Below the pieces are notes generated by a model, which did not search any database, was not told where the DNA came from, and saw only the letters and a list, made by a program, of their open reading frames with translations. Position numbers and translations under genes: made by a program. This document shows positions 14,785 through 28,106 of a stretch of 64,000 nt of DNA, one piece after another (the first letter of the stretch is position 1; each line of letters begins with the position of its first letter). The stretch comes from Treponemataceae bacterium (GTDB lineage Bacteria > Spirochaetota > Spirochaetia > Treponematales > Rectinemataceae). The stretch covers positions 96,001-160,000 of the forward strand of contig CAXXGJ010000002.1 of the NCBI GenBank assembly GCA_963677895.2, read 5' to 3'.

Positions 14785-14829
14785 CCTCCACTGACGCTGT
14801 TTTCCTACGCAGACGGTATTTTCCTATCT

Positions 14830-14874
14830 TATGTGCGCTGTCGCACAGACTCGATCCCCGCCTCGGATTATCCT
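14830..14874 (+). promoter_or_regulatory. Island regulon site 1: CRP/FNR-like box + -10
   Basis: tatgtgcgctgtcgcacagac (14830-14850), 18 nt, TATCCT (14869-14874). Confidence 0.75.
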
Positions 14875-14911
14875 TCATTCAGTCCAGTGAATAACGGGGC
14901 AAGGGGGCTGT

Positions 14912-15130
14912 ATGAAAAATAATTTTAAAAGAGAGGAAGCGTCATCCATGCGGTACGGGAACGGCGGGAGCCAGATGGAAGATCCGGCGAGACTGTCTCC
15001 GTCCATGAGCAGCATGGCGCTGCTCTCGCGGGGCGGCAATCGCGAAATGAAGGATTCTTGTATCACGCCAAAAGTAATAGAGCTCGGCGATGTCGCCGAC
15101 AGGTCCTGCTTCAACGGGCAAGACCTGTAA
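14912..15130 (+). CDS. Small hypothetical peptide with RiPP-leader-like motif (ITPKVIELGDVADRS)
   Basis: SD aaggggg 5 nt upstream; first ORF after regulon promoter 1; start uncertain. Confidence 0.45.
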   Translation: MKNNFKREEASSMRYGNGGSQMEDPARLSPSMSSMALLSRGGNREMKDSCITPKVIELGDVADRSCFNGQDL

Positions 15131-15187
15131 AAGACATGCAGGTTTTGCCTGCCGAAATTTTCCATCATCCAAACCACGGAGGTTTCC

Positions 15188-15715
15188 ATGAAACGTATCA
15201 TTCCCTTATTGATGTTGCTGGCTCTACTGCCGGTCGGCGTCTTCGCCCTTGATTTCTATGCTGGCGCCAACGCCTATTATGCCAGCCTGATCCAGCCGGC
15301 CGACATTCAGGCTATCGACACCGCCAACCTCAACATGGCTGACTTCTCTTTCGGCGGAGAGGCGCGCATTGTCGGTCACCTTCTTTGGGCCAGCGCCATC
15401 GGAACCTACACTCCAGCCGACGCCAACATGCCGCATCGTCTCGATGTAATGCTGGACGGCGGTGTCGGCCTCAGGCTGGGCATCGTGCGCGCCGGTATCG
15501 GAATCGGACCCAATTACGGGATCGAAATGGGCGACAACGCGGGGAACTACTTCAAGACGGGCGCCAATATGCGCCTCACCGGCGATGTCCTGCTGGGACC
15601 TTTCTCGGTCGGATTGAGCTGGATCAGCAAGATCGAATTCACCCGCGCATCGTTTGTCGAGGCTTTCGAAAACCCTTATGGCCAGCTTGGCCTGGCGGTT
15701 CTCTACAAACTGTAG
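15188..15715 (+). CDS. Exported protein, probable small outer-membrane beta-barrel
   Basis: SD ggagg, signal peptide ending VFA, alternating Gly/hydrophobic strands, C-terminal LGLAVLYKL. Confidence 0.6.
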   Translation: MKRIIPLLMLLALLPVGVFALDFYAGANAYYASLIQPADIQAIDTANLNMADFSFGGEARIVGHLLWASAIGTYTPADANMPHRLDVMLDGGVGLRLGIVRAGIGIGPNYGIEMGDNAGNYFKTGANMRLTGDVLLGPFSVGLSWISKIEFTRASFVEAFENPYGQLGLAVLYKL

Positions 15716-15758
15716 GCGCGGCCGCTCCCGCCGAAGAGTATTCGGCAAGAAGATAAAG

Positions 15759-15790
15759 AAAGGGCACCGGAAAATTTCCGGTGCCCTTTT
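15759..15790. terminator. Bidirectional intrinsic terminator
   Basis: aaagggcaccggaa-aat-ttccggtgcccttt between convergent genes. Confidence 0.8.
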
Positions 15791-15825
15791 CGTACCCAGG
15801 CGGTACTGTTTTTCCTATCGTTTTA

Positions 15826-16905
15826 TCACATCGTCGGTTCAGTCACCGCATCGGCATCCAGGGTCACCGCGGTCTGCGCGAGCAGCCTGCCGTTCACCAT
15901 GGCGCCGGTGTTGACTTCCACCAAGGTTTTGCAAAGGATGATTCCCTTGAAGTCCGAGGTCGTGCCGAGCGTGGTCTGTCCGGCCACCTGCCAGAAAATA
16001 TTCTTGGGCTGCGCGCCGCCGCTCAGGGTGACGATGGTTCCGTTGCCCACCGTGAGGTCCTGCGCTATCTGGAATATCCAGACATCGTTGGCGCCGCCGT
16101 TGAGCGTGACGCTGTTGTTAATCAGAACTCCCGTTCCCCATACGTACAGGCCGGGAACGATGGTCTGTCCGCTGAGATCGCCCGCGTGCAATTCCGTGGC
16201 GTCGGGCAACGTGCGTCCCGCGGCGTCGGTGTAGGCGATTTCCATGTCGCCGATGGCCGTCGTCATGTTGGATGGCGTAGGCGGCGTATAGTCAGCCGCG
16301 TAGATGCTGCCGGTGACGTAGGATGATGTCGAGAATACGTTCGAAGCGTCCATGATGAGGTCAAATCCGGTGATGTAGGTAGCGGCGGCAGGACTCACGC
16401 CGATGTCGCCGGTGATCGCCGTCGTTCCCGTCGTCGATACTCCGGTTTTAGCCAGGATGACAAAGTTGCCCGCGGTGCCGAGATTTACGGGCGACGGACC
16501 GGAAGCCAGGTTGACCCCGGTTGTAAAGCTCCATGCGTACTCAGCTTCAAGAGCATTTCCCGCAACGTCCGTGGCCGCGATCGTTATCTTCGCCGTATAG
16601 ACAACGCTGGATGTAAGTTCTGTCGTCGGTTCCAGCGTGGCGACGAGATCGACATAGGAGACGGAAGCGGGAACGGGCGTCGCGCCCTGGCTCAACGTAA
16701 AGGAAAGCGCCGTGATCGTCGAGGAGTCCATCGCTTCGCTGAAGGTCGCGGTGACGCTCCTGTTCCTGGCGACATCGGTCGCCGAGGCGGCCGGCGTCGT
16801 CAGATCGACGGTGGGAGGAATGACGTCGTCATTGTTGACGGGACTTTTGCATCCCGCGATGACAAGAACCATCAGTAAAATAGGCATAAACCACATCTTT
16901 CTCAT
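15826..16905 (-). CDS. Ice-binding-like lipoprotein 1 (Ig-like Big_5 + DUF3494)
   Basis: Lipobox IAGC; TATFSEAMD...YAWSFTT Ig-like; VNLGTAGNFVILAKTG, VWIFQI, KNIFWQVAG, NGRLLAQTAVTLD; SD aaggagg. Confidence 0.92.
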   Translation of the reverse strand: MRKMWFMPILLMVLVIAGCKSPVNNDDVIPPTVDLTTPAASATDVARNRSVTATFSEAMDSSTITALSFTLSQGATPVPASVSYVDLVATLEPTTELTSSVVYTAKITIAATDVAGNALEAEYAWSFTTGVNLASGPSPVNLGTAGNFVILAKTGVSTTGTTAITGDIGVSPAAATYITGFDLIMDASNVFSTSSYVTGSIYAADYTPPTPSNMTTAIGDMEIAYTDAAGRTLPDATELHAGDLSGQTIVPGLYVWGTGVLINNSVTLNGGANDVWIFQIAQDLTVGNGTIVTLSGGAQPKNIFWQVAGQTTLGTTSDFKGIILCKTLVEVNTGAMVNGRLLAQTAVTLDADAVTEPTM

Positions 16906-16940
16906 AAAAAGCACCTCCTTAATCAGTGCATAAAATTCTG

Positions 16941-16987
16941 AAAATAGGGCGCGAAGTCCGCCATGGTCGTGACGGACGCCGCACCCC
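16941..16987 (-). terminator. Imperfect hairpin + short U run between IBP2 and IBP1
   Basis: Minus strand gggtgcggcgtccgtca-cgacca-tggcggacttcgcgccc-tatttt. Confidence 0.45.
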
Positions 16988-17004
16988 GCATTCCGATGCT
17001 CAAA

Positions 17005-18084
17005 TTACAGTGCTGGTTCCACGATGGTATTGGCATCCATCGTGACCGCGGTCTGCGTAAGCAGTCTGCCGTTCACGGTTGCTCCCGCAGCCAGGGTTAT
17101 CGCGCCCGCCGACATGACTACGCCTTCCATATGGGAAGTCGCGGCGAGGGCGACGGCGCCGCCCACCTGCCAGAAAATGTTCTTGGGAAGCGCTCCGCCG
17201 GTCAGGAGGACCTGAGCCGTCGCGGCTTCGGTGAGCCCGCTGGCGATCTGGAATATCCAGACATCGTCGGCGCCGCCGTTGAGGGTGACGTTGGTCGTGA
17301 TCGACACTCCGGTTCCCCATTTATAGAGGCCGGGCGCGAGGGTCATGCCGCCGATTTCTCCGGCTCCCAGCTCCGAGGAATTGGGATCGAGCCGGCCGGC
17401 CGCGTCATCAAAGGCAGCCTGCATCGCAAGCACCGCCGCGGTCAGGTTCGTAGGCGTAGGCTCCGCGTAGTTCGCCGCATAGACATTCCCCGTCACCAAG
17501 GTCGAAGTGGCGAAGGTGTTCGACACATCCATCGTCAAGCCGAATCCAGTCATGGCCGCCGCATCGATGGGGCTCACGGCGATGTCGCCGGTGATCGAGG
17601 TCACTCCGGTGGTCGTTATTCCCGTCTTGGACAGGATCGCGTAATTCCCGGAGGTTCCGAGATTCACCGCCGCGGGACCGGCGGGAGGATTGGCCGTGGT
17701 CGTGAAGGTCCATACCTTATCGGCCGCAAGCGCATTGCCAGCCGCATCGGTGGCGCCTGTCGTGATCGTGGCCGTATAGACAGCGCTGGCCGCGAGATCG
17801 TTGGTGGGGTTAAAGGTCGCCACCTTGTCGGCATAGCTGACCACGCCGTCGATCGCGGTGACGCCCTGCATCAGGGTGAAGTTCGCCGCCACGATGGTCG
17901 CAACATCCATGTCTTCGCTGAAGGTGGCGGTGACATTGCTGTTCCGCTCTACCGCGACCGCGGCGTCAGCCGGAACTGTGGAATTGACAGTAGGAGCCGT
18001 GAGGTCCTCTTCAACCACGGGATTGCTGCAGCCGCTCAGTGAAAGGGCTACCATAAGCAGTCCCAGAAACAACATCTTCTTCAT
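17005..18084 (-). CDS. Ice-binding-like lipoprotein 2 (Big_5 + DUF3494)
   Basis: Lipobox LSGC; TATFSEDMD, KVWTFTT; LAPGLYKW, VWIFQI, KNIFWQV, NGRLLTQTAVTMD. Confidence 0.92.
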   Translation of the reverse strand: MKKMLFLGLLMVALSLSGCSNPVVEEDLTAPTVNSTVPADAAVAVERNSNVTATFSEDMDVATIVAANFTLMQGVTAIDGVVSYADKVATFNPTNDLAASAVYTATITTGATDAAGNALAADKVWTFTTTANPPAGPAAVNLGTSGNYAILSKTGITTTGVTSITGDIAVSPIDAAAMTGFGLTMDVSNTFATSTLVTGNVYAANYAEPTPTNLTAAVLAMQAAFDDAAGRLDPNSSELGAGEIGGMTLAPGLYKWGTGVSITTNVTLNGGADDVWIFQIASGLTEAATAQVLLTGGALPKNIFWQVGGAVALAATSHMEGVVMSAGAITLAAGATVNGRLLTQTAVTMDANTIVEPAL

Positions 18085-18147
18085 AATCGATATCTCCTTG
18101 TTCTTCATTCTCTTGTTCATGTTCAAAAATCCTCCTTCTTATCTGCA

Positions 18148-18192
18148 AGAATACGTATGGAATCCGAATTGGTCTGTTCGGTAGCACACACA
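18148..18192 (-). promoter_or_regulatory. Island regulon site 2 (drives IBP2-IBP1)
   Basis: Minus strand tgtgtgtgctaccgaacagac (18192-18172), 18 nt, TATTCT (18153-18148). Confidence 0.72.
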
Positions 18193-18205
18193 GTCCGGCG
18201 CCGTC

Positions 18206-18251
18206 TGTGTGTGCTGGCGCACAGACGAGGTTGCTCCGCGAGAATCATATT
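18206..18251 (+). promoter_or_regulatory. Island regulon site 3 (drives IBP3)
   Basis: tgtgtgtgctggcgcacagac (18206-18226), 19 nt, CATATT (18246-18251). Confidence 0.7.
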
Positions 18252-18316
18252 TATGGGCAGATGGGGAGGATCGCTTCTATATGAATCATATGTCCAAGAG
18301 AAAAAGGAGAAAAACA

Positions 18317-19714
18317 ATGAAGAAGATTTTAGTCTCGATGCTCGTGCTGGTCGCGTTTTTCGCGGTCAGCTGCAAAAGTCCGGTGGCTGAGGACGTTGTC
18401 GCGCCCACGGTTGATCTGACGAGTCCAGCCGATCTCGCCACCAATATAGCGATAACGGCGGACGTGACGGCGACCTTCAGCGAAGCGATGGATTCCGCGA
18501 CCGTCGTCGCGGCGAACTTTACGGTAAGCCAGGGAGCGACGCCAGTCGCGGGCACGGTGAGCTTTGCCGATGATGTCGCCACCTTCAATCCGACCAGCGA
18601 TTTCGCGGCGGGAACCGAGTACACGGCAACGGTCTCGACCGGTGTCATGGATCTGGCAGGCAACGCGCTGGCCTCCGCCAAAGTATGGACCTTTACGACA
18701 GCGGCGTTGGTCGACATCATCGCTCCCGTAGTGAGTTCGATCAGTCCCGCGGCCCTTGCCGTCGATGTGGCCACAACATCGAATGTCACCGCTACCTTCA
18801 GCGAAGCCATGACTTCCGGAACGATCATCGCCGCGAACTTCACGTTGACGCAGGCGGCTACGCCCATTCCCGGCGCGGTCAGCTATCTGGGCAACGTCGC
18901 CACGTTCAATCCTGACAGCAATCTAGCCTTCAACACGATCTACACCGCAACCGTGAAGACGGACGTCACCGACCTGGTAGGCAACCATCTCGCGGTCAAC
19001 AAGGTATGGACCTTCACGACCGTAGCCGCCCCAGCGGCGGGCCCCGCGGCCGTAGACCTTGGAACGGCGGGCAATTACGTAATCCTGGCGAAAACCGCCA
19101 TCAGCACCGTTCCAACCTCAGCGGTAACGGGCAATATTGGGCTGAGCCCGGCCGCCGCGAGCTTCATCACGGGATTCTCACTCGTAGCGGACGCCACGAA
19201 TGTGTTCGCGACAGCGAGTCAGCTTACCGGAAGGGCTTATGCCGCCGATTATGCTTCTCCCACCCCCACGAACCTGACCACCGCCGTGAGCAATATGGAA
19301 GCGGCGTATACCGATGCCGCGGGGCGACCGACGCCGGACTTCCTGAATCATGGAGCCGGAGAGATAGGCGGCTTGACCCTCGCGCCCGGACTCTATAAGT
19401 GGACCACGAATCTCTTGATCACCACCAACGTCACGCTGAACGGCGGCGCCAACGATGTCTGGATCTTCCAGATATCGGGCGGCATCACCCAGGCTTCCGG
19501 CGCGAGCGTCAATCTGACCGGCGGCGCTTTAGCCAAGAATATCTTCTGGCAAGCGTCGGATGATGTCGCGCTTGGCACGACCGCCCATATGGAAGGCATC
19601 GTGCTTTGCGCCACGGCCATCCACCTCGGCACCGGCGCTTCCGCCAATGGCAGGCTGCTGGCCCAGACCGCCGTCACGATAGACGGCAGCGCGGTAGTCG
19701 AACCCGTACTGTAG
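18317..19714 (+). CDS. Ice-binding-like lipoprotein 3 (two Big_5 + DUF3494)
   Basis: Lipobox AVSC; two TATFSEAM...KVWTFTT repeats; DUF3494 motifs VDLGTAGNYVILAKT, VWIFQI, KNIFWQ. Confidence 0.92.
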   Translation: MKKILVSMLVLVAFFAVSCKSPVAEDVVAPTVDLTSPADLATNIAITADVTATFSEAMDSATVVAANFTVSQGATPVAGTVSFADDVATFNPTSDFAAGTEYTATVSTGVMDLAGNALASAKVWTFTTAALVDIIAPVVSSISPAALAVDVATTSNVTATFSEAMTSGTIIAANFTLTQAATPIPGAVSYLGNVATFNPDSNLAFNTIYTATVKTDVTDLVGNHLAVNKVWTFTTVAAPAAGPAAVDLGTAGNYVILAKTAISTVPTSAVTGNIGLSPAAASFITGFSLVADATNVFATASQLTGRAYAADYASPTPTNLTTAVSNMEAAYTDAAGRPTPDFLNHGAGEIGGLTLAPGLYKWTTNLLITTNVTLNGGANDVWIFQISGGITQASGASVNLTGGALAKNIFWQASDDVALGTTAHMEGIVLCATAIHLGTGASANGRLLAQTAVTIDGSAVVEPVL

Positions 19715-19752
19715 ACGAATCGATAGATCCGCCCGCAATGCGAGGCTAATGT

Positions 19753-19800
19753 AAAAAAGAAGGGGCTGCCCGGGAAGAACTTCCCGGGCAGCCCCTTCAA
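19753..19800. terminator. Bidirectional intrinsic terminator
   Basis: gaaggggctgcccgggaag-aa-cttcccgggcagccccttc preceded by an A run, between convergent IBP3 and catalase. Confidence 0.85.
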
Positions 19801-19850
19801 TTATTTCTACTGATCAACCTGCCGCATCGACCCGATGATCGGATTCTTGC

Positions 19851-21356
19851 CTACCGGCTGGTTGCCCCGACACGTTCTTCCTGAGACATGGCCGCGAGCC
19901 TCTTCACTTCGGCGCGGTCCAGCTTCAGTCCTTGGGCGACGCGTTCCCCGTACTCGACATCCACCTTATAGAACAGGGCCGTCTGGCGCAGCTGAATGCG
20001 CGTTTGCGCCTTGCCCAGATGGGATACGATATTGCTGACGAGATGGTCGCGGTCCGTGTCGGACATGACCTTCCTATACAGATCGCCTGCCTGGACAAAG
20101 TCCACGTCCCCGCTTTCGTAGACATGCCGCGTCGCCGTCCCTGAAACCGTAAGGGGCGGCGCGGAGAATGACGGATCGGGCGCGGGACCGCCGACGCTGT
20201 TGGGCCAGTAGTTGGGACTCCCGCCGCCGTTCGGGCCCGACCGCATGGGGCCGTCGCGCTGATAGCCGCTATCCATGGAAGCCTTAGGCGCATTGATAGG
20301 CAGAAGATTGAAGTTCGGGCCCAGCCTGTGCCTCTGCGTATCGGGATAGCTGAACAGGCGTCCCTGCAGAAGCCTATCCGGCGACGCCCCGATTCCCGGC
20401 ACGAAATTGCCTGGCGCGAAGGCGATCTGCTCCACTTCGGCGAAATAATTGGACGGATTGCGGTTGAGCACCATGCGTCCAAGGGGAAGGAGCGGATAAT
20501 CCGCGTGCGGCCAGACTTTGGTTATATCGAAAGGATCGAATCGATAGGTTTCGGCTTCCGCCGGCGTCATGATCTGCACGGACACTCGCCACGCGGGATA
20601 CTCGCCGCGCTGTATGCTGTCGAAGAGATCCCTCGTCGCGTGGTCGGGATCGACGCCGGCGAGACGAGCGGCTTCTTCCCGAACGAGATTCTTGATCCCC
20701 TGTTCCGTCACGAAATGCGTCTTGACCCAGCAGTAACCGCCCTTTTCGTCGTACCACATGAAGGTGTGGCTGCTGAAGCCGTGCATGTGACGGTAATCGA
20801 GAGGGATGCCGCGGTCGGAGAAAAGAATCGTCACTTGATGAATGGACTCCGGAGTAAGCGAGAGAAAATCCCAGAACATATCGGGGTCTTTCAGGTTGGT
20901 CGCGGGATTGCGTTTTTGGGTATGGATGAAATCCGGGAATTTTATCGCGTCGCGGATGAAGAACACCGGCGTATTATTGCCCACCAGATCGTAGTTGCCT
21001 TCCTCAGTATAGAATTTGACGGCGAAACCGCGGGGATCGCGGTCCGCGTCGGCGGAACCCTTTTCGCCGCCCACCTGCGAGAATCGCGCGAAGATTTCCG
21101 TGCGCTTTCCCGGGCTGGAAAGAAATTTTGCGCGCGTATACTTCGTCATGTCATGGGTAACCTCGAAGTATCCGCCCGCTCCGGCGCCTTTCGCGTGCAC
21201 AACCCTTTCGGGCACGCGTTCCCTGTCGAAGTGCGCCAGTTTTTCCAGGAGGTGGGTATCCTGGATGAGCGTGGGGCCATCAGCTCCCGCCGTCATCGAG
21301 TTCAGGTCATTCTCGACAGGTCTCCCCGTATTCGTCGTCAATATATTTTTTTTCAT
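19851..21356 (-). CDS. katA: Monofunctional heme catalase (small subunit)
   Basis: [17 protein letters not shown] active-site signature, [33 protein letters not shown] heme-ligand motif. Confidence 0.97.
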
Positions 21357-21403
21357 GATTTTCTCTCTCCCGCCCATATGCCGCGATTTTCGATCGACAG
21401 GAA

Positions 21404-21850
21404 TTACTTTCCCGAAGTCAAAGAGCGGTAGATCAGCTGCATCAGCTCTTCGAAAAGGTGGAAGTATCCGGTATTGTCTTTCTTGTAGGCAGTAACTGTA
21501 TCGTTGATGCCCGATCCCATTTTTTCCATCACGTCGCTGGCCAGGGTCAAGCTGCCTTTTGCCGTGTTGGCGACATGCTCGACTTCCTGGATGATCGCGG
21601 GAAATGAAACCTTCAGCTGAGAGGTCGTGTCCTTGAGATCGCCGCTTATCTGCTCGAGATCCCCGATTATGGCGGGCACTCTTCTGAAGGAATGCTTTAT
21701 GGAATCTTTATTGATCTCCACAAGCGGACTGATGATTCCCACCATTTTTTTTATGTTCAGGAGTATGGGGACGAGAATGGCGCCGATCAGGATTCCCATC
21801 ATGCAGACCAGGAAAATCATCAGATCAGGCAACGTGAATTGTATTGTCAT
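21404..21850 (-). CDS. DUF948/YoxC-like membrane-anchored coiled-coil protein
   Basis: Single N-terminal TM followed by heptad-like region; lies directly downstream of YtxH as in general stress operons. Confidence 0.55.
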
Positions 21851-21865
21851 GGTTTTTGCCCCGCT

Positions 21866-22195
21866 CTACGCTGAAGCCGTTCCGCTTCTCTTTTTCCTGG
21901 CCGCCGGCTTCGGCTGCAAGGTGCTTTTCAGTTCCTGAGCCGCGTGGGCCGTTGTTTCCTTTACGATTTCCGCCTTGCGCCTGAGTTTTTCCCTGATGGT
22001 CTCCAGGGTTTCTTCCGCTTTCTTTTTCAGCTCCTCCCTGGTTTCTTTCCCCGATTTCGGCGCGTAGAGAATTCCTTTCAGCAGTCCGATAGTGGCGGCT
22101 ATGCCCATTCCCAGCGCGAAATTTATGGAAGCCTTTCTTCGGTCCTCGTCCCTTTTTTTCCTGTTTACCATATCCAGCATATTATTGAAAAACAT
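21866..22195 (-). CDS. YtxH domain general stress protein
   Basis: GILYAPKSGKETREELKKKA motif; SD ggagg before ATG 22195. Confidence 0.85.
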   Translation of the reverse strand: MFFNNMLDMVNRKKRDEDRRKASINFALGMGIAATIGLLKGILYAPKSGKETREELKKKAEETLETIREKLRRKAEIVKETTAHAAQELKSTLQPKPAARKKRSGTASA

Positions 22196-22298
22196 ACAAA
22201 TTCCTCCGCAGAAAATTCTGCTGATCTCGAGACGCCCTGCCGGTCGCATTGGACCGGCTAAGCTCTACTCGGTCGAAATAATATCGGCGATCGCGCGG

Positions 22299-22475
22299 TT
22301 ACATGATCTTTTTGATTTCTGCCTTGGCGTCGCCGAGTCCAGCCTGAACGGCCCCTTTGATTTTTTTGGCCTTTCCCTTTTTCTCCATTTTTTTATCGCC
22401 GACGACAATGCCTATCGCCTGCTTGACCTTGCCTTTCACTTCGTCGATGCGTCCCTTGATTTGATCATTATTCAT
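22299..22475 (-). CDS. csbD: CsbD family stress protein (58 aa, below ORF-track cutoff)
   Basis: Translated by hand: MNNDQIKGRIDEVKGKVKQAIGIVVGDKKMEKKGKAKKIKGAVQAGLGDAKAEIKKIM; SD aggag. Confidence 0.9.
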   Translation of the reverse strand: MNNDQIKGRIDEVKGKVKQAIGIVVGDKKMEKKGKAKKIKGAVQAGLGDAKAEIKKIM

Positions 22476-22547
22476 TCTTGTCTCCTCTCGTGAAATCTTT
22501 TGGAAATGGTCCCATTTATCAACGTTCCCATTCTCTTGCCTGATCCA

Positions 22548-22592
22548 AAGATACTTTCAAGGCCTAGCCGGGTCTGTGCGGCAGCACACATA
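22548..22592 (-). promoter_or_regulatory. Island regulon site 4 (drives csbD-ytxH-DUF948-katA)
   Basis: Minus strand tatgtgtgctgccgcacagac (22592-22572), 18 nt, TATCTT (22553-22548). Confidence 0.75.
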
Positions 22593-22620
22593 GGGCAGGG
22601 CAAAGGCGGGCCGGACAGTC

Positions 22621-22665
22621 TATGTGTGCTGCCGCACAGACCGGTTCGAGCCTGGAACGTATGCT
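22621..22665 (+). promoter_or_regulatory. Island regulon site 5 (drives IBP4)
   Basis: tatgtgtgctgccgcacagac (22621-22641), 18 nt, TATGCT (22660-22665). Confidence 0.75.
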
Positions 22666-22726
22666 TTTACGTATATGGAGGACTGCGCTTCCAAAATTCC
22701 GGAAAATCAAAAGAGGAGATAATCGT

Positions 22727-23806
22727 ATGAAGAAAATGGCCTTATTGGCTCTAGTATCTATTATCCTAATTGTGGCGGGCTGCAATAGCCCCGTTGTCGG
22801 AGGCGATGCCACCGCTCCCACGGTCGATGCCACCTCTCCCGCCGCCGCGGCAACCTCCGTCGGCAGAAATATCGGCGTGACGGCGACCTTCAGCGAAGAG
22901 ATGGACGCCGCGACGATCGGCGACGCGACCTTTACCCTTTCTATGGGGGGGAATCAGGTCGCCGGCGCCGTAACCTACGCGAACATGGTGGCGACCTTCG
23001 ATCCAACCGCCGATTTATCGGCTAATGCCGTGTATACCGCCACGATCACGACAGGCGCCAAGGATGTGTCGGGCAACGCTCTCGCGGAAAACCGCGAATG
23101 GGTTTTCACCACGGGCGGCACGTCGGCTTCCGGTCCCGTGACGGTGAACCTGCGGACCGCCGGCGATTTCGCGATCCTGACCAAGGCCGGCATCGGTACG
23201 ATTCCGACCTCGGTGGTGACGGGCGACATTGGCGTGAGTCCGATAGACTCGACGGCCATCACGGGATTCTCGCTGGTGATGGACGGCTCGAATACTTTCG
23301 CCACATCCAGCCAGGTCGTCGGGAAGGCTTACGCGGCCAATTATGTTCCGCCTACCCCCACGAAAATGACCACCGCCGTCAGCGACATGGAAACAGCCTA
23401 CACCGACGCGGCCGGCAGGGCCACGCCCGATTTCATCGAACTGGGCAGCGGAGAGATCGGCGGACTCACGCTGGTGCCGGGCCTCTATAAATGGGGCACC
23501 GATGTGCTGATATCCAACGATGTAACGCTCAACGGCGGACCGACCGATGTCTGGATATTCCAGATATCCGGCGGAATAACGCAAGCCTCCGGCAAAAGCG
23601 TAAACCTGACGGGCGGCGCCTTGCCCCAGAACATATTCTGGCAGACCTTCGGTCCCGTCGCCCTCGATACCACCGCGCATTTCGAAGGAGTCGTGATGTC
23701 GTACACGGAAATAACCCTGGCCACTGGCGCGTCCGTGAATGGCAGGCTCCTGTCGCAGACTGCCGTCACGATAGATTCCGGCACCGTTACGCAGCCTTCG
23801 CCGTAA
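22727..23806 (+). CDS. Ice-binding-like lipoprotein 4 (Big_5 + DUF3494)
   Basis: Lipobox VAGC; TATFSEEMD, EWVFTT; LVPGLYKW, VWIFQI, QNIFWQ, NGRLLSQTAVTID; SD gaggag. Confidence 0.92.
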   Translation: MKKMALLALVSIILIVAGCNSPVVGGDATAPTVDATSPAAAATSVGRNIGVTATFSEEMDAATIGDATFTLSMGGNQVAGAVTYANMVATFDPTADLSANAVYTATITTGAKDVSGNALAENREWVFTTGGTSASGPVTVNLRTAGDFAILTKAGIGTIPTSVVTGDIGVSPIDSTAITGFSLVMDGSNTFATSSQVVGKAYAANYVPPTPTKMTTAVSDMETAYTDAAGRATPDFIELGSGEIGGLTLVPGLYKWGTDVLISNDVTLNGGPTDVWIFQISGGITQASGKSVNLTGGALPQNIFWQTFGPVALDTTAHFEGVVMSYTEITLATGASVNGRLLSQTAVTIDSGTVTQPSP

Positions 23807-23812
23807 GTCGGG

Positions 23813-23847
23813 ATGAAGGGCCGGCCCGACCGGGCGGCCCTTCATTT
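23813..23847 (+). terminator. Terminator-like hairpin after IBP4
   Basis: atgaagggccg...cggcccttcat followed by tt. Confidence 0.6.
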
Positions 23848-23883
23848 GCCGCATAAGATTTTGGAACCGAAAGGAGGAGCATT

Positions 23884-24078
23884 GTGAATACATTGAACGC
23901 AAAAAGCGCTACATATGGATTGAACGTCGAGTTCGGAAATAAAGCGAGATATATCGGCGTCGCGGACATGTTTTTTGAAGAGAGAAAAGTCGAAGAGTTG
24001 CTGAATAGAGTAGAGAAGCGAATAGGAAGGTCGAAGGAAGACGTTGTCGGATACATCGATACGATGGCAACCAGATGA
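23884..24078 (+). CDS. Small hypothetical protein
   Basis: SD aggagg, GTG start, stop overlaps next ATG (ATGA). Confidence 0.5.
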   Translation: MNTLNAKSATYGLNVEFGNKARYIGVADMFFEERKVEELLNRVEKRIGRSKEDVVGYIDTMATR

Positions 24079-24530
24079 TCAATGTCGTTGGTATTAAGAA
24101 TCGCATAACTTTTCATAAATACACCGAAGCGGCGAAAGCCATCAAGTCCGAACTCGCCCAAAAATTTCCCGGCGTCTCCTTTTCGATCAAATCGAAATCG
24201 TTCGCGAGCGGAGACAATGTAACGATAGATTGGACGGGAGGCCCGACAAGCGATGCCGTCGAATCGATAGTGATCAAATACCGGTACGGAACCTTCGACG
24301 TGTCGAAAAATCTCTATCTCTACGACAGTCGCGACGATGCCCTCCCGCAGGCGCAGTATGTGATGGTTTCCCACCATCACAGCGATTCCTCGAAAAAAAA
24401 GGCCAAGCAGGAAATCGCCGATGGTTTCAATGTGGACATGAATGACAGCCAGGCGGTGTTCGCCGCCTTCGGCGACTGGCCGCAGCCTTTGATCCGCGCG
24501 AAGCTTGAGCATCGCAGCCCGTTCAATTAA
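24075..24530 (+). CDS. LPD29-like domain protein (large polyvalent protein domain)
   Basis: AAKAIKSELAQKFPGVSFSIKSKSFASGDNVTIDWTGGPT...YGTFD pattern recognised as LPD29. Confidence 0.7.
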   Translation: MINVVGIKNRITFHKYTEAAKAIKSELAQKFPGVSFSIKSKSFASGDNVTIDWTGGPTSDAVESIVIKYRYGTFDVSKNLYLYDSRDDALPQAQYVMVSHHHSDSSKKKAKQEIADGFNVDMNDSQAVFAAFGDWPQPLIRAKLEHRSPFN

Positions 24531-25515: not shown

Positions 25516-26442
25516 TTACTTGATTTTCGAGTTCCCCGACGGGCGGACGGGGCGGGCTTCTATGTACCCGCGCCAGCCCTGCGGCGCCAGCTGGAAACGC
25601 GGCGCCGAATCGGGCGCCCAGGCGAAACCGTAGAGAGCGGGATCGAAGCTGTCGATTTTCTTCATCACCGCGACGACGGCTTCCTCGAAATCCTCGTCAT
25701 CGTAGGGCTCTCCCTGGAATATCATCATCATCGCCGGCCCGAACTCGGCGAGTTCGTATCCTTCCGGAACAGGCCCGCTCCAATCCAGGGGCAGCTCGAC
25801 GCCCTGCACGTACTCAGAGGTGCCGGTCGGGCGGAGTTTTGCGGGCAGCCAGAGGCCGACCGGCTCATAGAGCGCTTCCTTGACGCTTGATAGGACGCCC
25901 CAGACGTCGCAGCCAACTTCCTCGCAGTAGGCGAAGTACTCGTTCGCCGTCTTGGCCCGCTTGATGAGGACCTTGCGGGCCGGTCTTTCAATCACCTGCA
26001 CGAAAATAGTCTTGCTCGTGCCTTCTTTCATGTCGTTTTCTCCTTTTTCATGCTTTTGGCGCAATGGAAGAGGATAGGGAAGAAACAGCTTCACGGGGCG
26101 GGGCTGTTTGCGGTACTTCGCCGGGGTTACGCCGAATTCTTTCGAAAAAGAGCGCGTAAATCCCTCGTGCGAGTCGAACATGAAGTCCAAAGCCACGTCG
26201 AGAACCCTCGAGGGCTTGTCCCGCAATACCAGAGCCGCCTGTGAAAGCCTCAATCTGCGGATGTATTCGAAGGGCGGCTGACCGGTCAGCTCCCTGAACA
26301 TCCGCTGCGCGTGCCACGCGGAATATCCCGCCGCACGCGCCAGATCATGGACCGAGATTTTGTCGCGCACATTCGCGAGAATATAATCCTGCATTTGGCG
26401 TACTGCGCGGATCATGTCCTCTCGCGTGTGTTCCCGTTCCAT
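25516..26442 (-). CDS. AraC family transcriptional regulator with GyrI-like effector domain
   Basis: LARAAGYS...YIRRLRL, VALDFMFDSHEGFTRSFSKEFGVTP; SD aaggagg. Confidence 0.9.
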   Translation of the reverse strand: MEREHTREDMIRAVRQMQDYILANVRDKISVHDLARAAGYSAWHAQRMFRELTGQPPFEYIRRLRLSQAALVLRDKPSRVLDVALDFMFDSHEGFTRSFSKEFGVTPAKYRKQPRPVKLFLPYPLPLRQKHEKGENDMKEGTSKTIFVQVIERPARKVLIKRAKTANEYFAYCEEVGCDVWGVLSSVKEALYEPVGLWLPAKLRPTGTSEYVQGVELPLDWSGPVPEGYELAEFGPAMMMIFQGEPYDDEDFEEAVVAVMKKIDSFDPALYGFAWAPDSAPRFQLAPQGWRGYIEARPVRPSGNSKIK

Positions 26443-26526
26443 GATCGCCTCCTTTAGCGCCATGCGATGGAGTGTCGCAGATTCCTGGTTCCCGTTCTTG
26501 ACCTGCACTGCGAAATTGAAAAGATT

Positions 26527-26562
26527 CGCCGCCGCGCCGCCGCGCCGCCGCGCCGCCGCGCC
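26527..26562. repeat. 8-bp tandem repeat (CGCCGCCG) x4.5
   Basis: cgccgccg repeated in the mtfA-araC intergenic region. Confidence 0.9.
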
Positions 26563-26573
26563 AAGGTTTGCTT

Positions 26574-27386
26574 TCATTTTCGCCACGTGGTGGGGTCGCG
26601 GTGGAAAAAGAGCTTGAGCTGTTTATGGACGGCCGGATATTCCCGCAAAAGGACGGCCGGGCGCTCCCAGAAATATTCGCAGACCACGGCGAAGAATTCG
26701 TCGGGGCTCTCGGCCGCGTAAGGGTCCAGCCTGGATCGCGTTTTCGAGGTTCCCCTGCGGGCGGCGCGTCGCGCCTTCGGCGAATCCGAGAGTTTGGCGT
26801 TCAGGTCCTTCCAGGCTTCGGTGAACGCCTCGTTCCAGCGCAGCGGGTCCATGCCGGCGTGCAGGGGAGGGCGGCCGTCATAAAGGCCGTCCAGGCCGTC
26901 GAGTTTGTGGGCCATCTCGTGTATGACTACATTGTAACCATCGCCCCAGCCCGAGGCGTCTATGTCGGGAATCGACAGCGCGATAGGCCCCAGCGAGAAC
27001 GCTTCGCCGGCCAAGGCTTCCTCCCGCTCGTGGACTATGCCCGATTCGTCCGTCCAGCGCTGCGTGACGGCATAGGCGTCGGGCGTGACAAATATCGTGT
27101 TGAAGTCACGGTACCAGGACAAGTCCAGACCCAGCAGCGGAAGACAAGCCTGGGCGGCGACTGAAACCTTCAGCTTTTCGTCGATTTCGGCCCCGCCCAC
27201 GGGGCGGAAGCGCTTAATGGCCAGAAACTGTCCCGAAAGCTCGCGCAGCCGTGTCCGATCGTCATCGGGCAAGCCCGCGAAAATGCGGTGCTCATCCAAG
27301 GCCCATGCCCATAGTTCGTCGCGGATGGCGCCTCTCTCGGCGAGCCGCCGGCGTCTCGCCTCCAGAAATCCGTCGAAAATTCCCAT
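26574..27386 (-). CDS. mtfA: M90 family zinc peptidase (MtfA-like)
   Basis: AAQACLP, GYNVVIHEMAHKLD, YAAESPDEFFAVVCEYFWE. Confidence 0.9.
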   Translation of the reverse strand: MGIFDGFLEARRRRLAERGAIRDELWAWALDEHRIFAGLPDDDRTRLRELSGQFLAIKRFRPVGGAEIDEKLKVSVAAQACLPLLGLDLSWYRDFNTIFVTPDAYAVTQRWTDESGIVHEREEALAGEAFSLGPIALSIPDIDASGWGDGYNVVIHEMAHKLDGLDGLYDGRPPLHAGMDPLRWNEAFTEAWKDLNAKLSDSPKARRAARRGTSKTRSRLDPYAAESPDEFFAVVCEYFWERPAVLLREYPAVHKQLKLFFHRDPTTWRK

Positions 27387-27533: not shown

Positions 27534-27566
27534 GTCGGTACTCGCCGATTCATTTTTTCTGTCTGT

Positions 27567-27651
27567 GGAGCGGTGTCCGAGGGGTTTAAGGAGGCGGTCT
27601 TGAAAACCGTTGAACCGCGAGGTTCCGGGGGTTCGAATCCCCCCTGCTCCG
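27567..27651 (+). tRNA. tRNA-Ser(TGA)
   Basis: Cloverleaf with long variable arm; anticodon stem-loop gcggt-ctTGAaa-accgt; TTCGAATCC. Confidence 0.95.
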
Positions 27652-27670
27652 GATACTGCGATATTTTGTT

Positions 27671-27758
27671 GGAGAGGTGCGAGAGCGGCCGAATCGGGCT
27701 CCCTGCTAAGGAGTTGTACCTCTAAAGGGTACCGAGGGTTCGAATCCCTCCCTCTCCG
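27671..27758 (+). tRNA. tRNA-Ser(GCT)
   Basis: gctcc-ctGCTaa-ggagt; long variable arm. Confidence 0.95.
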
Positions 27759-27764
27759 CTACGC

Positions 27765-27838
27765 GAGGCTATAGCTCAGCTGGATAGAGCTTCAGATTGC
27801 GGATCTGAAGGTCGGAGGTTCGAATCCTCTTAGCCTCA
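27765..27838 (+). tRNA. tRNA-Arg(GCG)
   Basis: tcaga-ttGCGga-tctga; acceptor gaggcta/tagcctc. Confidence 0.93.
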
Positions 27839-27847
27839 TTCTTCGTT

Positions 27848-27933
27848 GGAGAGATGCGAGAGCGGCTGAATCGGGCGGTCTCGAAAACCGTTAAACCTTT
27901 TAGGTTTCGAGGGTTCGAATCCCTCTCTCTCCG
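27848..27933 (+). tRNA. tRNA-Ser(CGA)
   Basis: gcggt-ctCGAaa-accgt; long variable arm. Confidence 0.95.
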
Positions 27934-28019
27934 CAAGCCGCGCTTCTTCGTCGCTCCAACGTCGATAAAGCAGGCGTTTTCAGTTTTTCGTTTCTGTTTT
28001 CGTTTCTTTTTTTCTTTTT

Positions 28020-28106
28020 GGAGAGATGACCGAGCGGCCGAAGGTGCGCGATTGGAAGTCGCGTGTACCCGTAAGGGTACCTAGGGTTCAAATCCCTATC
28101 TCTCCG
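28020..28106 (+). tRNA. tRNA-Ser(GGA)
   Basis: cgcga-ttGGAag-tcgcg; long variable arm. Confidence 0.95.

Follow-up and report, generated by a model that had tools for sequence, protein, structure and literature searches.

A palindromic box ahead of stress and DUF3494 lipoprotein genes in a spirochaete genome, the putative operator of a BerA-related CRP/FNR activator

Five copies of one oriented DNA element precede stress genes and DUF3494 lipoprotein genes in a stretch of 64,000 nt from a Treponemataceae bacterium (contig CAXXGJ010000002.1, positions 96,001 to 160,000; the whole stretch is hereafter called the window). We put at roughly 0.86 the probability that these copies are operator boxes of a class II-type activator, namely a CRP/FNR protein related to BerA of Burkholderia cenocepacia and encoded on another contig, C6, of the same genome. 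An earlier note on this DNA had proposed a CRP/FNR class II activator, and that reading is now supported by the distribution and synteny of the C6 gene, by the boxes flanking it, and by a geometry that centres the palindrome at −41.5. The source genome (G000) comprises 3.5 Mb in 39 contigs and is 92.8% complete; its closest named relatives are metagenome-assembled genomes of Rectinemataceae/Treponemataceae, and G001 and G002 are its congeners. Motif, spacing, co-occurrence, synteny, fold and residue conservation were computed here, and from these we infer binding, activation, start sites, operons and signal.

The pattern TRTGTGYGCTRNCGMACAGAC matches the window exactly five times (shuffle mean 0.00), and the 21-mer originally described still has five matches at up to three mismatches (shuffle mean 0.02), so that the reported count, with no copy elsewhere in the window, stands. 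The element, however, is more aptly seen as an imperfect palindrome of 20 bp, T[AC]TGT[GT][CT]G-N4-CG[CA]ACA[GT]A, with one C downstream of it, and the TGTG-N8-CACA core ascribed to it is present in every copy except the one at 18192, where the core reads TGTG-N8-AACA. Box 1 (14830..14850, + strand; the palindrome plus the C) is followed by the −10 hexamer TATCCT at 14869-14874 and a predicted start at 14881. Boxes 2 (18172..18192, −) and 3 (18206..18226, +) lie back to back with centres 33 bp apart; the former is followed by TATTCT at 18153-18148 and a predicted start at 18141, the latter by CATATT at 18246-18251 and a predicted start at about 18258 (18257-8). Boxes 4 (22572..22592, −) and 5 (22621..22641, +) are likewise back to back, with centres 48 bp apart, and are followed by TATCTT at 22553-22548 (predicted start 22541) and TATGCT at 22660-22665 (predicted start 22672), respectively. 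Upon recomputation, the four TAnnnT hexamers begin 18 nt after the 21-mer and CATATT 19 nt after it, and the five start positions agree with those proposed before. The one-base offset of box 3 is kept in both congeners (CATATT, GATATT), and the 20-mer of box 1 is identical in G001 and G002. The possibility that the box is a repeat or the end of a mobile element was rejected because the copies have nothing in common beyond the box and the −10, their flanks being different. As had been noticed, none of the five sites carries a TTGACA −35: the sequence there, 17 nt ahead of the −10, is CAGAC(T/C/G), and scanning the five window sites for the sigma-70 consensus gave no promoter.

Across the whole source genome, a matrix scan recovered 15 sites above 15 bits and none in two genome shuffles, a comparison that is partly circular because the matrix was trained on those same 15 sites. 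Twelve of the 15, among them 8 of the 10 outside the window, have TAnnnT at offset 19 after the 20-mer, and no other offset has it more than once; 23 of 29 sites and, in other phyla, 104 of 199 sites conform to the same class II geometry. The −41.5 position, reckoned in all these sets from the −10 hexamer alone, extends beyond the window in which it was first seen. The sites outside the window precede, among others, genes for a DUF5670 protein, a run of RNase II-like protein, alpha-beta hydrolase and superoxide dismutase (SOD), DnaJ, a REC-PAS histidine kinase, a small lipoprotein, other barrel-like proteins and proteins without family match, and the putative regulon, earlier equated with the five stress and ice-binding units, is wider than these. 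Two further features of the genome were encountered near such loci or on C6. A 130-amino-acid (aa) protein resembling two tandem CsbD-like units is encoded two genes after a box (G000:C38:121371-121763, or 1572-1964 of locus L104), and C6 holds three copies of one sequence of at least 70 bases, spaced by about 4.3-4.6 kb (G000:C6:56632, 60930, 65516), which suggests a tandem repeat or a repeated gene.

The regulator predicted to lie outside the window has a strong candidate. The source genome contains three Crp/Fnr genes above the Pfam cut-off, on contigs C6, C18 and C17, and three of the 15 boxes flank the C6 gene (G000:C6:177826-178581, − strand). In G002, the gap between the acylphosphatase gene and the equivalent of box 1 (14785..14829 in the window) holds a complete Crp/Fnr gene whose product belongs to the C6 subfamily and is 82% identical to the C6 protein; this gene is absent from the gap in G000 and G001. 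Furthermore, G001 encodes an 80%-identical paralogue between two boxes that stand 375 bp apart without a gene on contig C38 of G000. The window island has no regulator of its own and would therefore be served from another contig.

The distribution of the gene was surveyed in 61 genomes, which are kin and some of which are incomplete. The regulator is present in 12, and the strict palindrome was found at 66 sites in 10 of these 12, versus 3 sites in 3 of the 49 genomes without the regulator (one each). Five genera (g6, g10, g11, g13, g21) are each represented by one genome with the regulator and one without; strict pattern and gene go together in three of these genera, and in none does the pattern run counter to the gene. 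By their distribution across the 61 genomes, the two remaining Crp/Fnr genes fit the box less well and were rejected as its readers: the C18 paralogue occurs in 15 genomes without the box, and 10 genomes with it lack the C17 paralogue. DUF3494 genes are found in 12 of the 61 genomes, 10 of which have the regulator. Upstream of the regulator match, TTGACA occurs at 50-64 nt in 6 of 8 other spirochaete loci and also in G000; given such a promoter in most spirochaete loci, synthesis of the C6 protein is likely to be constitutive, with activation following translation and control exerted on the protein itself. In one of the surveyed loci (L151, G026:C20:46170-54800), the box precedes genes whose translations resemble, by eye, 6-phosphogluconate dehydrogenase, phosphoketolase, PRC-barrel and FtsH proteins, and a bacterioferritin-like gene adjoins; this target set is of the dormancy type.

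The box is not confined to spirochaetes. Among the best 80 of 156 homologue loci, 70 are from outside this phylum (Beta- and Gammaproteobacteria, Acidobacteriota), and the top 4-mer palindrome found de novo in these 70 is TGTG-N8-CACA (52 seen, 7.9 expected), a result independent of matrix training; TGTGCG-N4-CGCACA was seen 13 times versus 0.08 expected. With the spirochaete matrix, 65 of the 70 loci yield a total of 199 sites, compared with 2.2 in shuffles, and the offset-19 hexamer of the 104 sites mentioned above contrasts with at most 23 of 398 flanks at each other offset. In 44 of the 70 loci, a box lies within 400 bp upstream of the regulator gene. Another palindrome from the de novo count, CAGAC-N4-GTCTG, was set aside because it probably belongs to the regulator coding sequence. 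Pfam was used to classify 66 of the 123 first-downstream open reading frames (ORFs), evident regulator copies, repeats and doubtful ORFs being omitted. The families found include CsbD (5), BON (5), Crp paralogues (5) and REC-containing proteins (4), followed by DUF5670, DUF3096, PRC, STAS and DUF3494 (2 each), as well as DUF3185, Usp, ferritin-like and SOD proteins; 26 of the 66 have no family. DUF3494 similarity is present in only 4 of the 70 loci, and the prominence of these proteins is hence a spirochaete trait. The subfamily is large, with 7,717 cluster representatives (50% identity) at E ≤ 1e-30. In a quick tree, from which no donor or order of transfer is claimed, the 16 rows of the spirochaete clade group together (SH-aLRT, the approximate likelihood-ratio support, 95), one of them being labelled Shapirobacteria. 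That row is a Candidatus Shapirobacteria homologue with 81% identity (L028, JBAZWK010000085.1), possibly from a mis-binned contig. The Pseudomonas aeruginosa island pKLC102 (L112; NC_019202.1, 85797-102495) encodes a 67%-identical regulator, around which, together with a GH94 glucan gene and a fatty-acid desaturase gene, there are six boxes.

These data bear on how the box is read. Its downstream half lies exactly on the −35 position, where, at the 17-nt distance from the −10, G19-A20-C21 coincide with the GAC of TTGACA. In principle, an alternative sigma factor could read CACAGAC as a −35 and TAnnnT as a −10, making an activator unneeded; the exact 17-nt distance between CAGAC and the −10 would suit it, as would the fact that, among 125 oriented sites, G19 (96), A20 (123) and C21 (72) are better kept than the mirror positions (position 2, for example, is A in 87). 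However, the upstream half-site is about equally conserved (TGT at positions 3-5 in 111, 123 and 119 of the 125, sites which were picked with a symmetric matrix), and the box arises de novo as a palindrome that tracks one Crp/Fnr subfamily in three phyla. The asymmetry of the box (TAT.. upstream, ..AGAC downstream) is also accounted for if the downstream half overlaps the −35 and is contacted by region 4 of sigma-70. We therefore regard an alternative sigma factor as very improbable, its best evidence being absorbed by sharing of the downstream half-site with sigma-70 rather than speaking for the rival. According to the activator model, the C6 protein would dock as a dimer on the 20-bp palindrome, whose centre lies at about −41.5, and bring housekeeping sigma-70 polymerase to promoters with a −10 but no TTGACA, sigma-70 region 4 and the activator presumably sharing the downstream half-site.

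The overlap with the −35 position would also be compatible with repression by the same Crp/Fnr protein of otherwise weak promoters. Yet there is no consensus −35 to block at these sites, the constancy of the 19-nt spacing across phyla is what an activator in contact with the polymerase would require, and BerA has been published as an activator (PMC3584217); repression is the least probable of the alternatives considered here. Nearly as improbable is a third arrangement, in which another co-travelling regulator, for example a response regulator fed by the REC-PAS kinase, reads the box, the Crp/Fnr gene being a mere neighbour or target. Indeed, a REC-PAS-HisKA-HATPase gene adjoining the Crp/Fnr gene is a box target in G000 and G005 (by Pfam) and in locus L026 (by similarity), and single REC proteins are box targets in Acidobacteria. 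These REC and kinase proteins, however, show no DNA-binding domain; kinase-REC similarity is present in 4 of the 70 non-spirochaete loci, whereas the box occurs in 65 of 70 loci picked by their Crp/Fnr gene; and TGT-N10-ACA at −41.5 is, as is generally known, CRP geometry.

The C6 protein belongs to the CRP/FNR superfamily and consists of an N-terminal cNMP-like beta-roll, a long C-helix and a C-terminal winged helix-turn-helix. HTH_Crp_2 matches it with 62.5 bits (cut-off 27), cNMP_binding matches are found in close paralogues, and its AlphaFold model (mean predicted confidence, pLDDT, 89.9) has the CRP fold, the top Foldseek matches all being CRP, GlxR, NtcA or FNR proteins with 12-21% identity. 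In an alignment of 82 sequences, which omits L045, L069 and L091 for a stop codon in the match or a partial match, C154, H158, C231 and C233 are invariant (82/82) and the recognition helix is GVRREGVTE in 53. Compared with GASRETVNK of GlxR, this helix keeps the R-E pair and has an E in place of the last basic residue. The helix types covered in the accessible part of PMC3590769 (RExxR, RExxxH, RxxxxR and ExSR) do not end in E, and this E may be the residue that reads the changed inner bases of the box.

Several known systems resemble parts of this arrangement. Class II promoters of Escherichia coli CRP and Corynebacterium GlxR carry TGTGA-N6-TCACA centred at −41.5. The C6 protein shares with CRP and GlxR the fold (template-modelling score 0.6-0.7), the TGT-N10-ACA spacing, the −41.5 position and the R-E pair of the recognition helix, but identity is only 15-21%, the inner bases are [GT][CT]G..CG[CA] rather than GA..TC, E occupies the R185/K position of the helix, and a C-terminal CECY extension is present. 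In addition, the G-E and P-R-T residues with which GlxR binds cyclic nucleotide are not kept, FGELS and PRTSS aligning with VG[IV]AL and TTPSR. Differing in phosphate-cassette residues, helix end and inner box bases, the protein does not fall among the cAMP-binding CRPs. NtcA of cyanobacteria, which recognises GTA-N8-TAC at −41.5 ahead of TAN3T without a −35, is the best single-sequence match in PDB (E 2e-5) and NCBIfam (E 1e-5) and uses the same promoter design; nevertheless, with 25.1 bits against the TIGR03697 cut-off of 244.95, the helix VRREGVTE instead of STRVTVTR, and other targets, the C6 protein is not an NtcA. Nor is it an FNR or FixK, having no N-terminal Cys and the helix RREGVTE, whereas that family is marked by N-terminal Fe-S cysteines, an ExxSR helix and TTGAT-N4-ATCAA (accessible parts of PMC3590769 and PMC12071387). 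With regard to targets, the likeness is to the general stress regulons of SigB and EcfG. These include CsbD, YtxH, catalase and Dps-type genes, and CsbD, YtxH, catalase, SOD, ferritin-like, BON, Usp and PRC proteins are target types here; the cis element, however, is no alternative-sigma promoter but the palindromic box of a putative activator, combined with a −10 of the sigma-70 type. We found no description of the box in the literature searched, outside which most subscription journals lay; the Pseudomonas putida hpdH element contains TGTGC-n6-GCACA and belongs to a different system (accessible part of PMC5431877).

The closest characterised relative appears to be BerA, and the subfamily is not wholly unstudied, since BerA has been published. 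In B. cenocepacia, a promoter primer for berA listed in PMC5552954 aligns 290 bp ahead of a gene that we provisionally take as berA (bcam1349). The product of this gene shares 49% identity with the C6 protein over 224 aa (E 3e-78), matches the subfamily profile at E 1e-80, and has the identical recognition helix GVRREGVTE and the C..H / CECY set. According to the accessible parts of PMC3584217 and PMC9684580, BerA is a CRP/FNR activator of the bep exopolysaccharide genes that binds cyclic di-GMP (c-di-GMP), and the former adds that c-di-GMP enhances DNA binding by BerA. Unlike the spirochaete gene with its TTGACA promoter, berA depends on RpoN and BerB (PMC5552954). The targets differ as well, those of BerA being exopolysaccharide genes and the putative ones here stress and DUF3494 genes, and BerA is a divergent, long-branch member that the quick tree places, unsurely, outside the core clade. 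The accessible parts of PMC3584217, PMC9684580 and PMC5552954 hold no consensus for the BerA site ("motif" is not a word of that of PMC3584217), and BerA is not mentioned in the accessible part of the CRP review PMC10187061. In Burkholderia genomes which are relatives of the published strains, not identified as H111 or J2315 themselves, 12 bep regions contain 20 boxes above 15 bits versus 0.4 in shuffles. A box upstream of manC is kept in 12 of 12, and a strong box lies between berA and a divergent paralogue in 8 of 12 loci, the best site being elsewhere in the other four. At least the one record searched carries closer paralogues, and these could be the true readers. Two further leads were dropped: the region around paralogue L114 looks unlike the Burkholderia low-oxygen (lxa) locus, and membership of Methylobacillus EpsA in the subfamily was not confirmed, the literature searched holding no description of it and the one Methylobacillus locus inspected adjoining biotin and glucan genes.

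It should be noted that a number of observations weigh against the proposed pairing of box and regulator. The co-occurrence is a pattern rather than 61 independent tests because the genomes are kin, and 2 of the 12 genomes with the regulator (G030 and G031) lack the strict pattern, with matrix matches near the gene in both. As the source genome is 92.8% complete, another paralogue may be missing from its assembly. The published start sites of the BerA targets bepA and bepB do not match a box in the related Burkholderia genomes, in a test for which all but 5 of the 401 genomes of one screen were scored: a conserved weak box 354-663 bp upstream of wza (9/9 loci) misfits the published 5' end of bcam1330 (−88), and no box was found before wzc in 6 of 6 loci, the published 5' end of bcam1331 being at −64. 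Likewise, none of five bcs regions has a box above 9.5 bits, and BerA is reported to bind the bcs promoter.

What switches the C6 protein on is less certain than what it would bind. After constitutive synthesis, the regulator would be activated post-translationally, and as the trigger we tentatively favour, at somewhat less than even odds, a redox or metal switch at C154-H158-C231-C233. Ranked below it, and in our judgement unlikely, is a c-di-GMP effector role like that of BerA, which concerns the signal step only and is compatible with the DNA mechanism proposed here; the regulon would then be a sessile or biofilm one and the Ig-DUF3494 lipoproteins adhesins rather than antifreeze proteins. 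This possibility draws on the 49% identity to BerA, a reported c-di-GMP binder (accessible part of PMC3584217), on the presence in the genome of 10 ORFs with R.GG[DE]EF and 7 with an HD-GYP-like motif, and on homologues that adjoin cyclic-glucan-type glycosyltransferase genes in pKLC102 and Methylobacillus. On the other hand, BerA branches outside the core clade, the targets here are catalase, SOD and CsbD rather than polysaccharide genes, and the invariant Cys3-His set calls for an explanation of its own. In the favoured reading, the regulator would turn on a general programme for stress and the cell surface, made up of CsbD, YtxH, catalase, SOD, RNase II-like protein, DnaJ and small membrane proteins, into which these spirochaetes would have wired the DUF3494 surface lipoproteins.

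The genes of the window island largely bear the identities first given to them: the four DUF3494 lipoproteins, CsbD, YtxH and catalase are confirmed by Pfam, with PF11999 at 235-261 bits (cut-off 28.7) and a lipobox-like Cys in each of the four, all Big_5 + Ice_binding proteins. The label "ice-binding" holds as a Pfam domain and, beyond that, is a domain label only; lipoprotein 4 scores below the NCBIfam IBP_CFB cut-off (233 versus 400). Box 1 is followed by a small ORF (15047..15130, +; 27 aa, or 72 aa from 14912) and a 175-aa protein (15188..15715, +). Of this supposed peptide and beta-barrel pair, the former shows a conserved core, C-x-TP[KR]VIELG...C, whereas the latter matches no Pfam or NCBIfam family, and its likeness to outer-membrane beta-barrel clusters by language-model features scores under the bar of the tool. 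The core, in the form C-x-TP[KR]VIELG-x5-6-C-[FY]N, is also found at L024:9593-9823 and L022:2728-2940 and usually precedes barrel or DUF3494 genes. It is reminiscent of the PxLxxxG motif in the leaders of lasso-peptide precursors, although the surroundings of the small ORF and its relatives showed no maturase gene. A hairpin at 15759..15789, terminator-like on the − strand, separates the barrel-like gene from the convergent box-2 unit, in which lipoprotein 2 (17005..18120, −; Big_5 + Ice_binding) comes first and, judging by the spacing, lipoprotein 1 (15826..16905, −; Big_5 + Ice_binding) probably second in the same operon. Box 3 is followed by lipoprotein 3 (18317..19714, +), with two Big_5 domains and Ice_binding, and an 18-pair hairpin, terminator-like on both strands (19759..19798), occupies the interval to the catalase gene. 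The box-4 unit is a putative operon of CsbD-like protein (22299..22475, −), YtxH-like protein (21866..22195, −), a 148-aa ORF without Pfam match (21404..21850, −) and, last, catalase (19851..21356, −), and box 5 precedes lipoprotein 4 (22727..23806, +; Big_5 + Ice_binding). A fifth DUF3494 lipoprotein, at G000:C6:360940-362094 (L145), follows a conserved 148-aa ORF; it has only a degenerate site, conserved in neither congener.

After lipoprotein 4, a gene of the large polyvalent protein-associated type LPD29 (24075-24530, +) is present in all three congeners; in G001 it comes directly after box 5, lipoprotein 4 being missing there, and a contig from run X10 likewise lacks 22676-23873. Farther along, an AraC-family regulator (25516-26586, −) lies near the island and shows no sign of tracking the box, and the translations around 27550-28100 resemble a tRNA gene cluster. 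A groundwater metagenome (X4) covers all 30 bins with near-identical pieces and is the best match to the island among four DNA contig sets.

The mechanism proposed, in which a CRP-family dimer activates from the class II position, is of a known kind, and the operator is apparently undescribed. The novelty lies in the branch found in spirochaetes, in a regulator encoded on a different contig from its putative targets, and in DUF3494 genes among these. If the assignment is true, a CRP/FNR branch that is very large but has hardly been studied would gain an operator and a promoter design, with a code kept across three phyla, so that regulon prediction would become possible in thousands of genomes, and the box would offer a testable candidate site for BerA. 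More speculatively, and at odds of only about one in three, a large CRP/FNR subfamily may run a sigma-factor-independent general stress regulon through one box and one geometry across Pseudomonadota, Acidobacteriota and Spirochaetota, sensing via a new Cys3-His metal or redox site, with BerA as a specialised offshoot and, in groundwater spirochaetes, a dedicated switch for a battery of DUF3494 surface lipoproteins; bacterial ice-binding-like proteins would then have, within the literature searched, their first named activator and operator. In tying these lipoproteins to a stress programme, the proposed regulon would make the inducing signal a route by which their ice-binding and adhesion roles may be tested against each other.

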